Below are positions 35,865 to 54,667 of a stretch of DNA of 64,000 bases, one piece after another (the stretch's first letter is position 1; each line of letters begins with the position of its first letter). The stretch lies in assembly GCF_053078305.1 (NCBI RefSeq), contig NZ_CP166879.1; one strand, written 5' to 3'. A model generated the notes under the pieces. The model saw only the letters and a program-made list of their open reading frames with translations, was not told where the DNA came from and did not search any database. A program made the position numbers and the translations under genes.

Positions 35865-37477
<1,613 letters not shown>

Positions 37478-41105: not shown

Positions 41106-42386
41106 ATGGCGATTAACGGAGTGGACGGTGTTAGCGCAGTCACCGTGGATGAACTACTCAAGCAAGGCCTTCGGATACCGAACTATCAACGCCCATACAG
41201 TTGGGAAGTATCGACCGCTCTACAACTGGTGGATGATCTCAGCGAAGCTCTTCGAGATACCGAAAGAAAAGATATTCCCTATGTTTTGGGTGCAATCATT
41301 CTTCACGATGATGGTGAGTATCTCAATGTAGTCGACGGACAGCAACGTCTGCTGACTTTGCGAATGATTCTTGCGGCCTTAGATCCGATAAATCACCAAA
41401 TTTCGGTGTCTGGTAACAGAGAAACCTCTGTCTCCCTGGTTTGGATAGAGCTTCAAAGGCGCCTGTCGCAGTTGGAAGATAAAAAAGAATTTTTGGATTT
41501 TATCTGTCACAAATGTCAGTTGGTGCGTATTGTGACGGACGATATTGATGAGGCATTCCGTGTCTTTGATTCCCAGAACTATCGCGGCAAACCGCTTGCC
41601 CCTCATGACTTGCTCAAAGCACACCACCTGCGCGAAATGCACGATGAGTCCGCTGCTATGAAAGTGGCTGTCGTTGAGGCTTGGGAAGCCGTAAATGATG
41701 AGGATCTGGACAGGCTTTTTTCTACTTTTTTATACCGGATATCCAAGTGGTCACGAGGAGAAAGCTCGCTCGAATTTGCTATTCGGGACATCGGTATGTT
41801 CAAGGGAATTTCATCACGATCCCACAGATCATTTTCGCCAAATCTGCGATATCACCTTGCAGCACAAGCCGCTATGCCACTTCTAAGTGCATGGGCGGTG
41901 TCCTCGACACATGATGCTCGAAATGCCGGGCGCAGCCGCTTTCAGCTTGATGCCCCGATAATCGCTGGGCGCTCATTTTTCGAGATGGTGGCATTCATGC
42001 TTGACGAATTGAAGATACTGGAAAAAGAGGTTATCGACAAAGGTTTCAAAAACTTTGGCCCATCTCAAAGTCGCTACCGCTACGTGTACGAATTGTTCAT
42101 TGCCGCTCTGCTTTGCTATACAAACAAGTTTGGCGATGAAGATGTGGATGAAGTGCGAAATAGGTTATTCGCATGGGCATATGCCTTGCGGGTCGAGTTA
42201 CTTCGTGTGCAATTTGTATCTGCTGACAACCGAGCTCGAGGTAAAAACGATGCAAATAAATCGCCTTTTGTTTTGCTACGCAACGCGATGACTGGAAGTG
42301 TTGTCCGCAAACTTCCAATAGCAAGTCAGCCATACAACGATAACCACGAAAAGGAACTCATTGCTTTTATCAAGGGGCTGCAATGA
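41106..42386 (+). CDS. DUF262-like (ParB/Srx-fold, GmrS-like) protein without nuclease domain; first gene of accessory two-gene cassette
   Basis: 426 aa; N-terminal IPNYQRPYSW and DGQQRL motifs at ~aa 25-80, later FDSQNYRGKPL motif; SD AAGGGA upstream; stop overlaps next start. Confidence 0.8.
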   Translation: MAINGVDGVSAVTVDELLKQGLRIPNYQRPYSWEVSTALQLVDDLSEALRDTERKDIPYVLGAIILHDDGEYLNVVDGQQRLLTLRMILAALDPINHQISVSGNRETSVSLVWIELQRRLSQLEDKKEFLDFICHKCQLVRIVTDDIDEAFRVFDSQNYRGKPLAPHDLLKAHHLREMHDESAAMKVAVVEAWEAVNDEDLDRLFSTFLYRISKWSRGESSLEFAIRDIGMFKGISSRSHRSFSPNLRYHLAAQAAMPLLSAWAVSSTHDARNAGRSRFQLDAPIIAGRSFFEMVAFMLDELKILEKEVIDKGFKNFGPSQSRYRYVYELFIAALLCYTNKFGDEDVDEVRNRLFAWAYALRVELLRVQFVSADNRARGKNDANKSPFVLLRNAMTGSVVRKLPIASQPYNDNHEKELIAFIKGLQ

Positions 42387-44335
42387 GCAAGAAGGAGTTG
42401 AAACCCGAACTGCTAACAGTAGGCAAGCTATTCACGGACAATTATCTGATTCCTATTTATCAACGGAACTATGCTTGGCGGGCCGAACAGATTGAGCAAC
42501 TTATCAGCGATATTCAAGACTCGGTTGTTGGGGGCCAGGACGACTATTTTCTTGGAAACCTTGTTGTAATCAAGCGGGGTAGAGAGGACGAGTTCGAGGT
42601 CATAGATGGACAACAACGACTTACAACCCTCTATCTGCTTCTGACCTTCCTGGAGCAAGACGGTGAGGGTGGGAAGCCGTCGATTGGCCATGCAGGCCAC
42701 TTGCAATATGAGTCGCGTGCACGGGCAACGGAAGCCCTGCGGCGAGTAGCACAGGAGGCGGCTAAGGGGCACGTCCGACCGCAGGGCTCCACGAGTAATG
42801 CAGATGCTGGCATCCATGAAGGCTACAGCATCATCAATCAGTTCTTCAAACAAAATGAAACCCTTAATTGCTCACGCGAAAAATTCTCCGATTTCTTGCT
42901 AACGAAGGTTACTGTCGTCCGTGCCTCGCTGCCACCCAATACAGATCTCAATCGCTACTTCGAGATCATGAACACTCGTGGGCAGCAACTCAAGCAGGTT
43001 GATATTGTTAAGGCTCGCCTGATGAGCAAGCTGCCCAATCAATATGAACGCGAATGCTTCGCCTGGGTTTGGGATGCCTGTGCTGAGATGGATTCTTATG
43101 TCCAGATGTCTCTGACCCGTGGTGACACCAGTTTGCGAAACAAAGTATTTGGCGATGAATGGTCCTGGCTGGAGGTGACCAGCTTCGCGTCGTTAATGGA
43201 AAGTCGTCCGCAATCCGGCATCAATTCTTCAAGGCAATCCTCCGAAGGGGTATCGTTGTCCTTGGATGAGGCGTTGTCAAAATACGCTAAAGAGATCGAG
43301 TCAAATTCCACTGAAGACGAGGGCAACGAGCGGTTTCGTTCGACTATTGAGTTTCCGGCCTTTCTGCTACACGTTCTAAGAATTATGAAAGGCGATGAGG
43401 TCGAAGACGAAGGCCAGCTTGACGACAAACGCCTCATCAAGTCATTTGACGACGCTGTAAATAATGTACCCGATGCTAAAGCCGATTGGGTGCGTAACTT
43501 TACATTCATGCTCCTCAAGTGCCGCAACCTCTTCGATGGCTTCATTTTGAAGCGTCAATTCACGGCGAACATCGGTGACGATGGCGATTGGTCTCTCCAG
43601 CGATTGAAGAAAGGCGGCGCGGACAAGAAGCCAACCCCGACGTATATCCATGTTTTCTCGGCCAGCAATGGAAACTTAGAGGAGGACGGCGGTGCTGACC
43701 CACATACCCGAGATGTATTGCTGCTTCAGTCCATGCTTCGGATAACCTACACTTCTCCGCGAACGATGCACTGGATTACCAAAGTTCTTCGCTGGCTATC
43801 CGTCAAAGCCCCTCAAGACGCGAAACATGCGGATCTTGCCGATTTGTTGAAGGGGTATGCCCGCAGCAAGGTCAAAGAGACATTCCCCTTTGAGGAAGAT
43901 CAGCAACCACAAGGGTTTGGTATCAGCCGCATCGTCTTTTCGTATCTCGACTATCTTCTGTTGAGCGATTCCTCAAAACGAGATTTCAAATTTCAGTTCA
44001 GAACTTCCATTGAGCACTTTTATCCACAGCATCCGGACAAAGAACAGTCGGGCGCGGTTGTTTCAGGTTCTAGCCTTAACCTGCTTGGCAACCTTGCGCT
44101 CGTAAGCGTCAGCGCGAACTCAAAATTCAGCAATAGCCTTCCCAGAGCGAAGGCCGAAAACTTCAAGGATACGATTGAACTTCAAAGTCCCAAGCTCAAG
44201 AGAATGGCGGAAATCACTCGAAATACAAGCTGGGACGATCAGCAGATAACAGCTCATCATGAAGAGATGGTGACATTGCTTCGTGATGATGTAAGTCTGG
44301 TGGAGGCAAGCGGAAGATCCTACCCGGGGCGTTGA
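42383..44335 (+). CDS. GmrSD/SspE-like protein: N-terminal DUF262-like domain fused to C-terminal DUF1524-like His-Me finger nuclease domain (putative modification-dependent or defence endonuclease)
   Basis: 650 aa; IPIYQRNYAW and DGQQRLTTL motifs; FEIMNTRGQQL; C-terminal SIEHFYPQHP ... GNLALVSVSANSKFSN. Confidence 0.8.
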   Translation: MSKKELKPELLTVGKLFTDNYLIPIYQRNYAWRAEQIEQLISDIQDSVVGGQDDYFLGNLVVIKRGREDEFEVIDGQQRLTTLYLLLTFLEQDGEGGKPSIGHAGHLQYESRARATEALRRVAQEAAKGHVRPQGSTSNADAGIHEGYSIINQFFKQNETLNCSREKFSDFLLTKVTVVRASLPPNTDLNRYFEIMNTRGQQLKQVDIVKARLMSKLPNQYERECFAWVWDACAEMDSYVQMSLTRGDTSLRNKVFGDEWSWLEVTSFASLMESRPQSGINSSRQSSEGVSLSLDEALSKYAKEIESNSTEDEGNERFRSTIEFPAFLLHVLRIMKGDEVEDEGQLDDKRLIKSFDDAVNNVPDAKADWVRNFTFMLLKCRNLFDGFILKRQFTANIGDDGDWSLQRLKKGGADKKPTPTYIHVFSASNGNLEEDGGADPHTRDVLLLQSMLRITYTSPRTMHWITKVLRWLSVKAPQDAKHADLADLLKGYARSKVKETFPFEEDQQPQGFGISRIVFSYLDYLLLSDSSKRDFKFQFRTSIEHFYPQHPDKEQSGAVVSGSSLNLLGNLALVSVSANSKFSNSLPRAKAENFKDTIELQSPKLKRMAEITRNTSWDDQQITAHHEEMVTLLRDDVSLVEASGRSYPGR

Positions 44336-45241: not shown

Positions 45242-45760
45242 TTAGCTCTTTTCAGGACATTTGGTATTTGGCTGAATACGCGTTTCGTTATACGTCGTGG
45301 TAATAACAACGGCTAAACCTGTCGTAAACTGGCACTCTTTACCCACCTGAGTAGAGGTATACACTTTGGTGCCTTCCTTATACGTTAAAGAAACACCTTC
45401 CACTAAGGTTTTATCATTCACCATAGAACCCGCTGCCGCGCCTACAGCTCCGCCGCCAACTGCACCTGCCGTCGTTCCGGAATTGCTGCCAGACCCGACG
45501 TTGTGGCCGATAACACCGCCAGCGACTGCGCCAATAAGCGCGCCGAAGGCTTGTGCGTTCCGTTTATTTTGGGAGTTGTCTACGGCAACTTTTGCGGGAA
45601 GAATGGAAATAATATTAACGGTTTTAGTTTCTTGTTTGGTATTCAGTTGATCGGTTTGATAAACATCGGCGGCATGATCGTCAGCATTTGACTGGCATCC
45701 TGCCAGAGTGAATGACGCTAACATTGCCACAGGCAGAAGACATTTTTTAAATTTCATCAC
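45242..45760 (-). CDS. yfgH: glycine-zipper outer membrane lipoprotein YfgH
   Basis: 172-aa ORF, lipobox LAGC, Gly-rich GAxxG repeats. Confidence 0.8.
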   Translation of the reverse strand: MMKFKKCLLPVAMLASFTLAGCQSNADDHAADVYQTDQLNTKQETKTVNIISILPAKVAVDNSQNKRNAQAFGALIGAVAGGVIGHNVGSGSNSGTTAGAVGGGAVGAAAGSMVNDKTLVEGVSLTYKEGTKVYTSTQVGKECQFTTGLAVVITTTYNETRIQPNTKCPEKS

Positions 45761-46059
45761 TATTCCTTGTTATACACATTACGAAAAATAAGACATTTAA
45801 GATCATCAAAAGAGGAAAGTAAATGTATTGCGTATAAAGGGATAGATTAAATTTATTAAAATTCACGTGGGGAATAATTTATGAAAACACATCATTACAA
45901 CATATATATTAATTTTGCAGCCAAACAGGATAAACATCAGTCAGGACAAAGACGTAAAATTTAAGATGAAAGAATATCTGCCGCTTTGATAATTCCAAAG
46001 AGCAAAAGCATCCGACAGCGAAGCGCCGTTATGTTCTGTGAAAGTGGAGAAGGTAACCG

Positions 46060-46251
46060 CTAACGTTGTACCGGTGATTCGACGGAGAGTGTGGATTGCT
46101 GAGCTTCTTTTTTGCTCTGATGGTGCTGCCAGGCACCGACGGACGAGTAGATAAAACGGCCAAAGAAGAAGATAAAGCTGATGAGCAGTACGATACGGGT
46201 CATGCGACTGTTAAATCGGTGTCGTTTTCGCATACTGGTTGCCTGACTCAC
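46060..46251 (-). CDS. yfgG: small membrane protein YfgG
   Basis: 63-aa ORF with single TM segment; synteny. Confidence 0.65.
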   Translation of the reverse strand: MSQATSMRKRHRFNSRMTRIVLLISFIFFFGRFIYSSVGAWQHHQSKKEAQQSTLSVESPVQR

Positions 46252-46461
46252 AAAAGGTTCCTTGAAGTATGTCCCACGCTGTGGACGGTACTTACATTAA
46301 GGCACAACAGGACAAAATGGTCAATTCTTCGTTATGTAAAAAAGCGTCAGTGGATACATATTTTAATGTTATGGAAGTTAATTTAATTATTTACAATGAT
46401 GATGTAATAATGATGAATTAACATGATAAACGTAATAATTCATTAATCAGGGTTATTTTGT

Positions 46462-46475
46462 TTGATATATATCAA
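46462..46475 (+). promoter_or_regulatory. FNR binding site upstream of pdeF
   Basis: TTGATATATATCAA is a perfect TTGAT-N4-ATCAA palindrome 128 bp upstream of pdeF start. Confidence 0.5.
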
Positions 46476-46602
46476 TTGGAACTTTCATATGACACTTAGA
46501 ATCAATGCTCTCTATAGTGATGAATAATCATCATTCGAAGTCAGGTGGGATGCCTGTCTGAATACACCTCCTTCAGGATGTGGGGGATTCTGCTGAGCAT
46601 CT

Positions 46603-48846
46603 ATGAAACTGAATGCAACTTATATAAAAATACGTGATAAATGGTGGGGGCTTCCGCTGTTCCTGCCTTCTTTAATCTTGCCCATTTTCGCCCACATTAA
46701 TACTTTCGCGCATATTTCTTCCGGTGAGGTTTTTCTCTTTTATCTGCCTTTGGCACTGATGATCAGCATGATGATGTTTTTCAGCTGGGCGGCATTGCCA
46801 GGGATCGCCTTAGGGATTTTTGTCCGCAAATATGCAGAGCTTGGTTTTTACGAAACGCTCTCATTAACGGCTAATTTTATTATCATTATCATTCTCTGTT
46901 GGGGCGGTTACAGGGTCTTTACTCCCCGCCGTAACAACGTTTCACATGGTGATACCCGTTTAATTTCCCAGCGTATATTCTGGCAGATTGTGTTTCCTGC
47001 AACGCTGTTTCTGATACTTTTCCAGTTTGCTGCGTTTGTAGGATTACTGGCGAGCAGAGAAAATCTGGTCGGCGTCATGCCTTTTAACCTCGGGACCTTA
47101 ATCAATTATCAGGCCTTACTGGTGGGTAATCTGATCGGTGTCCCGCTGTGCTACTTCATCATTCGGGTAGTGCGAAATCCATTTTATTTACGTAGCTATT
47201 ATTCGCAATTAAAACAGCAGGTTGATGTCAAAGTCACCAAAAAAGAGTTCGCACTCTGGCTACTGGCATTAGGTGCTTTACTGTTGCTGTTATGCATGCC
47301 GTTAAATGAAAAAAGCACAATTTTTAGCACCAATTATACCTTGTCATTATTGCTGCCCCTGATGATGTGGGGAGCGATGCGCTATGGTTATAAGCTGATT
47401 TCGCTGCTCTGGGCGGTCGTGTTGATGATCAGCATCCACAGCTATCAAAATTACATTCCCATTTATCCTGGCTATACCACGCAGCTGACCATAACCTCCT
47501 CCAGTTATCTGGTATTCTCTTTTATTGTCAATTATATGGCTGTACTGGCAACCCGTCAGAGAACGGTAGTCAGACGCATTCAGCGGCTTGCGTATGTGGA
47601 CCCGGTGGTTCATCTGCCAAATGTTCGCGCCCTGAATCGCGCGTTGCGTGATGCCCCCTGGTCTGCGCTTTGTTATTTACGCATCCCTGGCATGGAAATG
47701 CTGGTTAAGAACTATGGCATCATGCTGCGGATTCAATACAAGCAAAAACTTTCTCACTGGCTGTCACCCTTGCTGGAACCGGGTGAAGATGTTTATCAGC
47801 TTTCGGGTAACGATCTCGCGCTGCGACTGAATACAGAATCGCACCAGGAGCGCATTGCCGCACTGGATAGCCATCTCAAGCAATTTCGTTTCTTTTGGGA
47901 TGGCATGCCGATGCAACCGCAGATTGGCGTCAGTTACTGCTATGTGCGCTCGCCAGTGAATCATATCTACCTGCTGCTGGGAGAGCTAAATACGGTCGCC
48001 GAACTTTCCATCGTGACCAACGCCCCGGAAAATATGCAGCGTCGCGGGGCAATGTATTTGCAACGCGAATTGAAAGATAAAGTCGCGATGATGAATCGAC
48101 TACAGCAGGCGCTGGAACACAACCATTTTTTCCTGATGGCCCAGCCGATTACCGGTATGCGTGGTGATGTTTACCATGAAATTCTTCTGCGCATGAAAGG
48201 TGAGAATGATGAACTGATCGGCCCCGATAGCTTCTTGCCGGTCGCGCACGAATTTGGTTTATCGTCGAGTATCGACATGTGGGTCATTGAGCATACGCTG
48301 CAATTTATGGCTGAAAACAGAGCGAAGATGCCCGCTCACCGTTTTGCTATTAATCTGTCTCCAACCTCGGTATGTCAGGCTCGTTTTCCTGTTGAAGTCA
48401 GTCAGTTGCTGGATAAATATCAGATTGAAGCGTGGCAACTTATTTTTGAAGTCACCGAAAGTAATGCTCTGACCAATGTTAAGCAGGCGCAAATCACCTT
48501 GCAGCATCTTCAGGAATTAGGCTGCCAGATTGCGATTGATGATTTCGGCACCGGCTACGCCAGCTATGCGCGGCTTAAAAATGTGAATGCCGATCTGCTT
48601 AAAATTGACGGCAGTTTTATCCGCAATATTGTGTCAAATAGTCTGGATTATCAGATAGTGGCATCGATTTGCCACCTGGCGCGAATGAAGAAAATGCGGG
48701 TAGTGGCAGAGTACGTTGAAAACGAAGAGATCCGCGAGGCGGTGCTCTCTTTGGGGATCGATTATATGCAGGGTTATCTTATTGGTAAGCCGCAGCCGTT
48801 AATTGATACGTTGAATGAAATCGAACCCATTCGCGAAAGTGCCTGA
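46603..48846 (+). CDS. pdeF: c-di-GMP phosphodiesterase PdeF (YfgF); MASE1 membrane domain, degenerate GGDEF, EAL
   Basis: 747-aa ORF with multi-TM N-terminus and EAL-domain motifs. Confidence 0.85.
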   Translation: MKLNATYIKIRDKWWGLPLFLPSLILPIFAHINTFAHISSGEVFLFYLPLALMISMMMFFSWAALPGIALGIFVRKYAELGFYETLSLTANFIIIIILCWGGYRVFTPRRNNVSHGDTRLISQRIFWQIVFPATLFLILFQFAAFVGLLASRENLVGVMPFNLGTLINYQALLVGNLIGVPLCYFIIRVVRNPFYLRSYYSQLKQQVDVKVTKKEFALWLLALGALLLLLCMPLNEKSTIFSTNYTLSLLLPLMMWGAMRYGYKLISLLWAVVLMISIHSYQNYIPIYPGYTTQLTITSSSYLVFSFIVNYMAVLATRQRTVVRRIQRLAYVDPVVHLPNVRALNRALRDAPWSALCYLRIPGMEMLVKNYGIMLRIQYKQKLSHWLSPLLEPGEDVYQLSGNDLALRLNTESHQERIAALDSHLKQFRFFWDGMPMQPQIGVSYCYVRSPVNHIYLLLGELNTVAELSIVTNAPENMQRRGAMYLQRELKDKVAMMNRLQQALEHNHFFLMAQPITGMRGDVYHEILLRMKGENDELIGPDSFLPVAHEFGLSSSIDMWVIEHTLQFMAENRAKMPAHRFAINLSPTSVCQARFPVEVSQLLDKYQIEAWQLIFEVTESNALTNVKQAQITLQHLQELGCQIAIDDFGTGYASYARLKNVNADLLKIDGSFIRNIVSNSLDYQIVASICHLARMKKMRVVAEYVENEEIREAVLSLGIDYMQGYLIGKPQPLIDTLNEIEPIRESA

Positions 48847-54423: not shown

Positions 54424-54667
54424 ACTGCTTTACACAACCTTTTTGCACGTCTTTTCCCCAGGCGCGCGGCGAAAGAAGATTTGTGCCAGGGCAAAGGTTA
54501 GTTTTCGGATGGAATAATCTTCTTTCATAACCATTTGAATATAAAATAACTTTATCTCAAACCGTTATCATTTTGACTAAAGTCAACGAAAATAATATTG
54601 CCGCCTTGAAGAAAGGAGGTATAATCCGTCGATTTTTTTTGTGGCTGCCCCTCAAAGGAGAAAGAGT

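Follow-up and report, generated by a model that had tools for sequence, protein, structure and literature searches.

The overlap of a dimeric CRP/FNR-family activator with the -35 region is the hallmark of Class II promoters, and the standard positions from which the oxygen sensor FNR activates transcription are -41.5, -61.5 and places further upstream at steps of about one helical turn. CRP sites carry a characteristic G before the GA of the half-site, a position at which the FNR box investigated here has a T. The CRP-dependent Class II promoters, such as galP1 with its site at -41.5, share their architecture and presumably their mechanism with the pdeF promoter, but they differ from it in their operators, which span 22 bp with the half-site TGTGA, whereas that of pdeF spans 14 bp with the half-site TTGAT and has its FNR specificity backed by FNR ChIP.

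The closest described system is the yfgF (pdeF) promoter of E. coli K-12. In the passage of PMC3718329 that summarises Lacey, Partridge & Green 2010 (Microbiology 156:2873), it is assigned to the FNR-dependent promoters of Class II, with an FNR box TTGAT--ATCAA at -41.5, a -10 hexamer TAGAAT, and expression that is activated by FNR and at its highest when oxygen is absent; the -41.5 position is therefore used here at second hand, through that summary. The same paper gives TTGAC--ATCAA and TACAAT for the yfgF promoter of Salmonella, and RegulonDB has the anaerobic activation of yfgF by FNR among its curated entries. Binding in vivo was reported by Myers 2013 (PMC3688515), where an FNR ChIP-seq/ChIP-chip peak at yfgF/yfgG, with its summit at 2627146, has been called in all but one of the five columns of Table S5, and where the predicted site TTGATATATATCAA at 2627088 (PatSer 16.08, Table S6) coincides with the ChIP-seq peak, displays no NAP enrichment and has yfgF as its estimated target. 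Of the 63 predicted sites in Table S6 that coincide with ChIP binding, this one stands seventh by PatSer score, and yfiD leads with 17.25 (PMC3688515).

Several other FNR targets can be compared with this promoter. Exact TTGAT-N4-ATCAA sites with ChIP occupancy are also present at nirB, narK, narG, yfiD, ydhY, ndh and cydA (Table S6, PMC3688515), and among these ydhY resembles the pdeF site further in that the removal of H-NS and StpA strongly raises the occupancy by FNR. In contrast to nirB, narG and yfiD, yfgF showed an FNR peak in anaerobic glucose minimal medium and yet no significant change upon deletion of fnr (Table S9, PMC3688515), and ndh and cydA are repressed targets of FNR, whereas pdeF is an activated one. 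Exact-consensus sites of K-12 that were unbound are also recorded in Table S6, within sucC, purU, yehB and ybcM and upstream of araF/ftnB, which signifies that an exact consensus is no guarantee of FNR binding. The Fnr/ArcA supplements of Federowicz 2014 contain no entry for yfgF, b2503 or yfgG.

The FNR box and the pdeF promoter

The window, that is, the whole 64-kb stretch of DNA analysed in this study, is from E. coli, and the kilobase surrounding the box was matched in 5423 of 5426 complete E. coli genomes. Two divergent genes flank the spacer that harbors the box, around which the GC content is 36%. On one side is the c-di-GMP phosphodiesterase gene (46603..48846, + strand), named pdeF (yfgF) in the RefSeq annotation of E. 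coli genomes, which encodes 747 aa with MASE1 and EAL domains (Pfam); on the other is yfgG (46060..46251, - strand), which encodes 63 aa with DUF2633 and has its own promoter at about 46296-46324 (-) and its TSS near 46288. Positions 46462-46475 read TTGATATATATCAA on the + strand, a fully self-complementary 14-mer centred on 46468.5. It agrees with TTGAT-N4-ATCAA at all 10 specified bases and does not have the form of a CRP operator, TGTGA-N6-TCACA. The motif scan found this exact match nowhere else in the window. The palindrome claimed in the original prediction was borne out, and the distance of 128 bp to the pdeF start given there is correct when it is counted from the edge of the box, with 127 nt between its last base (46475) and the first base of the ATG (46603); from the centre the distance is 134.5 nt. 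We annotate 46462..46475, without strand, as an FNR-binding site on the evidence of its sequence, the FNR ChIP-seq peak of K-12, the half-sites kept across genera, and its preservation in 5335 of 5426 genomes.

By count, the single exact box is not significant (p about 0.13), as dinucleotide-preserving shuffles of the window contained a mean of 0.14 exact matches, with at least one in 13 of 100. Since this count is unremarkable against the shuffles, the significance of the box is drawn from its position, its conservation and its published binding.

With regard to position, the box is followed by a spacer of 21 nt (46476..46496, +; read from the sequence), which carries an A/T polymorphism at 46480, and then by the -10 hexamer TAGAAT of the FNR-dependent promoter (46497..46502, +), which is named as the -10 in PMC3718329 and is kept across genera as TA(G/A)AAT. 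This promoter lacks a usable -35 element: the hexamer located 17 nt before TAGAAT is AATTGG, with none of six consensus matches, and the best -35-like hexamer, TTGGAA (46476-46481), has four of six but a spacer of 15 nt to the -10. A poor -35 together with a box that lies over the -35 region, some 21-22 nt ahead of the -10, is what one expects of a Class II promoter that depends on its activator. Based on the published -41.5 (46468.5 + 41.5), the +1 of pdeF would fall at 46510 (+), where the base is C, with TAGAAT at -13..-8 and a predicted 5' leader of 93 nt (46510..46602, +) ahead of the ATG at 46603. The promoter displays a consensus operator that overlaps the -35 region with 21 nt to the -10, a poor -35 and a conserved spacing, all of which belong to Class II. 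A Class I FNR site would have its centre near -61.5 or further upstream, whereas the centre found here is at -41.5 with respect to TAGAAT and at about -56.5 with respect to another -10-like hexamer, TATAGT, which is considered below.

The K-12 promoter has the identical 14-mer, TAGAAT, distance to the ATG and divergent yfgG neighbour, and its one difference from the window is an A/T polymorphism at position 46480 (T in K-12), which falls in the 21-nt spacer, whose sequence is not conserved. What the palindrome represents, the Class II FNR operator of pdeF, is already known from the literature. The two comparisons that the original prediction had called for are in print as well: the summary of Lacey 2010 in PMC3718329 places the box at -41.5 from the mapped start, a functional position, and the K-12 ChIP data have a peak on exactly this 14-mer (Myers 2013, PMC3688515). 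With the link between FNR and pdeF published in 2010 and confirmed by ChIP-seq in 2013, finding it again adds no new biology. An independent genome-wide TSS record for pdeF was not found, and in the 3'-end tables of Adams 2021 the only entries for the two genes are one antisense 3' end within pdeF and one internal to yfgG, which have no bearing on the promoter.

Conservation and variation

Within E. coli, 5335 of 5426 complete genomes carry exactly the same 44-mer across the box (46436-46479). The 66-mer that runs from the box to the +1 has at least one difference in about half of the E. coli genomes. Of the four other E. coli strains that were aligned, three differ from the window in this stretch by A/T polymorphisms at 46480 and 46505, outside both the box and the -10. 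In strain L73 (NZ_CP033378.1), the insertion sequence IS1X2 is located 11 nt 3' of the FNR box (equivalent to 46486/46487), between the box and the -10, an arrangement that should uncouple pdeF from FNR. Disruption of this type is rare, as the 66-mer was without full-length coverage in only 2 of 5403 matching genomes.

For the comparison across genera, loci were obtained by a PdeF genome scan that recovered Escherichia species, Enterobacter asburiae, Phytobacter and Kluyvera, with PdeF identities down to 57-62%. The scan gave no Salmonella, Citrobacter or Klebsiella loci, its peptide patterns being too specific for E. coli, and the comparison with the Salmonella promoter was taken from PMC3718329. 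In 14 orthologous loci from the four genera, TTGA-N6-TCAA, a distance of exactly 21 nt and TA(G/A)AAT are invariant, at 117-136 nt before the ATG, whereas the N6 core, the sequence of the 21-nt spacer and most of the flanks differ among the loci. Invariant contact bases and fixed spacing within drifting surroundings are the signature of a functional operator/promoter pair, and we read this cross-genus footprint as independent support for the published Class II architecture.

The pdeF leader

Another conserved stretch was observed downstream of the promoter. The block G(T/C)CAGGT(G/T)GGATGCCTG(T/C)CT at 46540-46559, within the predicted leader, is invariant in Escherichia, Enterobacter, Phytobacter and Kluyvera, and it folds as a short hairpin (46539-46559) with the stem CAGGU/GCCUG and the loop (G/U)GGAU, which places GGA in the loop. 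A GGA in a hairpin loop is the classic recognition motif of CsrA. The stem never varies across the genera, so that covariation gives no support to the hairpin, and a DNA site at about +30 to +50 is an equally good reading of the block. The whole pdeF leader folds no better than shuffled sequences (z = -0.36), and no credible Rfam family was detected in 45700-46750. The CsrA CLIP-seq supplements of Potts 2017 have no yfgF/pdeF entry, in conditions under which pdeF may not have been expressed, and no publications describing a pdeF leader element were found. At the pdeF start codon, GAGCATCTATG is also invariant across the genera.

Mechanism and alternative explanations

We assign a probability of about 0.9 to the main reading, namely that the palindrome acts as the operator of a Class II FNR-dependent pdeF (yfgF) promoter. 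In the absence of oxygen, a [4Fe-4S]-FNR dimer would bind TTGAT-N4-ATCAA centred at -41.5, where it would cover the would-be -35 position and stand in for the -35 element. Through contacts with RNA polymerase of the kind established for Class II activation by FNR and CRP, it would recruit and activate the sigma-70 enzyme at TAGAAT, 21 nt downstream, and transcription would start near 46510 and pass through a leader of roughly 93 nt into pdeF. In the presence of oxygen, the cluster would be lost, FNR would come off the DNA, and the promoter, having no usable -35, would be silent. H-NS and StpA on the AT-rich spacer may further limit both occupancy and output, such that FNR would be needed and not always sufficient. 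The site, its occupancy in vivo, its spacing to the -10 and its conservation, on which this scheme is built, come from the present data or from the cited papers.

Other explanations of the palindrome were also weighed. That it is a chance AT-rich sequence without function deserves practically no credence: an exact match does occur in 13% of shuffled windows and several exact-consensus sites of K-12 are unbound in vivo (PMC3688515), but this 14-mer is bound by FNR in vivo (PMC3688515), stands at a fixed spacing to a conserved -10, is kept across genera amid diverged sequence and is near-invariant, with 5335 genomes sharing it, and chance is already refuted by the ChIP data together with the conservation. 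It is also very improbable that pdeF is driven by an overlapping sigma-70 'constitutive' promoter, with FNR near -56.5 modulating or obstructing it. A sigma-70-like pair, ATGACA-18-TATAGT (46489-46518, +; TSS about 46525), overlaps the FNR-dependent promoter and agrees with the consensus at 10 of 12 positions; it was the sole match of our promoter scan, and the same pair was predicted for yfgF from RpoD holoenzyme genomic SELEX (Shimada 2014). However, the one site of the scan compares with 1.9 expected in shuffles, neither hexamer is kept outside Escherichia while TAGAAT/TAAAAT is invariant, the published description of the promoter uses TAGAAT (PMC3718329), and FNR near -56.5 would occupy a non-standard position for activation. 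Equally hard to credit is the idea that the palindrome serves the divergent yfgG(HI) genes, activating or repressing them from its other face. The site is symmetric and lies within a divergent spacer, yfgG is among the operons that differ between aerobic and anaerobic growth (0.45, Table S12, Myers 2013, PMC3688515), and a -10-like AATTAT is present on the minus strand at 46440-46435, 21 nt from the box. Nevertheless, this hexamer is not conserved in other genera, the yfgG TSS and the conserved -35 and -10 of that gene are located about 180 bp from the box centre, which is too far for standard FNR activation, and Myers 2013 assigns yfgF as the target (PMC3688515). A divergent Class II yfgG promoter working from the pdeF box was rejected on account of this distance and of the unconserved hexamer.

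A further explanation concerns the conditions under which the operator works. The anaerobic, FNR-dependent expression of yfgF/pdeF that the original prediction referred to is supported by the Class II description with its box at -41.5 in the summary of PMC3718329 and by the ChIP of Myers 2013. The absence of an effect of fnr deletion, which that prediction had named among its grounds for refutation, was observed in anaerobic glucose minimal medium and is contradicted elsewhere, as far as Lacey 2010 is summarised in PMC3718329. We count this dependence on the medium as conditionality, not as refutation. It is possible, though we would not rely on it, that the FNR site is largely poised or silent in the wild type and that a second condition is needed (such as relief from H-NS/StpA silencing, entry into stationary phase or removal of a leader block), so that FNR would be one input of an AND gate and not a simple on/off activator. 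The ChIP peak with no fnr-dependent change of yfgF in anaerobic glucose minimal medium favours such a gate (PMC3688515). So does the hns stpA double mutant, in which the average FNR peak rises from 0.35 to 1.68 log2(IP/input), a significant increase and among the largest in Table S7, and in which yfgF is 4.3-fold higher anaerobically, with an O2-dependent +O2/-O2 ratio of 0.23 (Table S11, Myers 2013, PMC3688515). H-NS was flagged in the yfgF/yfgG spacer by Shimada 2014, the GC content around the box is 36%, and the invariant hairpin in the leader points in the same direction. On the other hand, wild-type K-12 is already activated by FNR, with maximal expression anaerobically, in the summary of Lacey 2010 in PMC3718329, so that some conditions suffice with H-NS present, and Table S6 records no NAP enrichment over the pdeF site (Myers 2013, PMC3688515). 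The AND gate is a refinement of the main explanation, not a substitute for it. We consider it the best reading that pdeF has FNR as its anaerobic activator and that H-NS/StpA, and probably also the growth conditions, gate the access of FNR and its output; FNR binding looks necessary for anaerobic induction but conditionally gated. The locus offers a clear example of a site that matches the consensus perfectly and at which nucleoid proteins still gate both occupancy and output.

A scheme with more gates, in which FNR binding comes first, H-NS/StpA limit the occupancy and the leader hairpin acts with CsrA or another RNA-binding factor, seems to us rather doubtful. If CsrA or another factor does act on the hairpin, the response of pdeF to anaerobiosis would be combined post-transcriptionally with carbon or stationary-phase status, and leader gating, if true, would explain FNR occupancy without expression in minimal medium.

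The yfgG promoter and neighbouring regions

The yfgG promoter was predicted as TTGACC-17-CTTAAT (Shimada 2014), and both of its hexamers, the -35 and the -10, are invariant across the genera examined. Its TSS at 2627275 (U00096.2; Peano 2015) was mapped to about position 46288 of the window through the K-12 coordinates. A sigma-S ChIP-seq region (2627100-2627399, U00096.2) lies on this promoter (46280-46330, -). In the sigma-70 ChIP-seq, the spacer has a single strong peak (2627279), its strongest under anaerobic conditions, and this peak coincides with the yfgG promoter and not with that of pdeF. Upstream of the yfgG promoter, conserved blocks were observed at 46332-46369, comprising ATGTAAAAA..CGTCAG and the inverted repeat ACAT-N6-ATGT (46356-46369), which is centred at about -74 from the yfgG TSS and is a perfect palindrome, ACATTAATTAATGT, in Kluyvera. 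These blocks are probably the site of an undescribed regulator; in the genomic SELEX of PgrR (YcjZ), the yfgF/yfgG spacer is among the targets.

The same blocks fall inside a 50-aa ORF (46269-46421, +) of the yfgG/pdeF spacer, for which the PGAP annotation of several strains gives a 'hypothetical protein' (WP_000017552.1). This ORF was rejected as an upstream gene: no Pfam domain matched it, NC_000913.3 does not annotate it, and its conservation across genera is patchy and includes a 1-nt indel, as for regulatory DNA. Most likely, it is spurious and merely overlies such DNA.

Further from the promoter, a pair of GmrSD-like genes (41106-44335, +) is located between guaA and yfgI. The first encodes 426 aa with GmrSD_N and DUF7834, and the second 650 aa with GmrSD_N and GmrSD_C; their top PADLOC matches are HEC-06/Orf5/SspE-like, and their GC content of 44-49% is below that of guaBA. 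In strain ECNB21-M121, a pair formed by an 'ATP-dependent nuclease' and a UvrD-helicase beside yfgI replaces the GmrSD-like genes, and the guaA-yfgI interval looks like a variable hotspot of defence genes.

When up to two mismatches to TTGAT-N4-ATCAA were allowed, 52 sites were observed in the window against 32.5 +/- 5.3 in shuffled windows, none of 100 shuffles reaching 52. Two further sites of the window were bound in the FNR ChIP-seq of Myers 2013 (PMC3688515), namely GTGAGCGAGATCAA at 37448-37461 in the guaB/xseA spacer and TTGACTAAAGTCAA at 54573-54586 in the upp/purM spacer.
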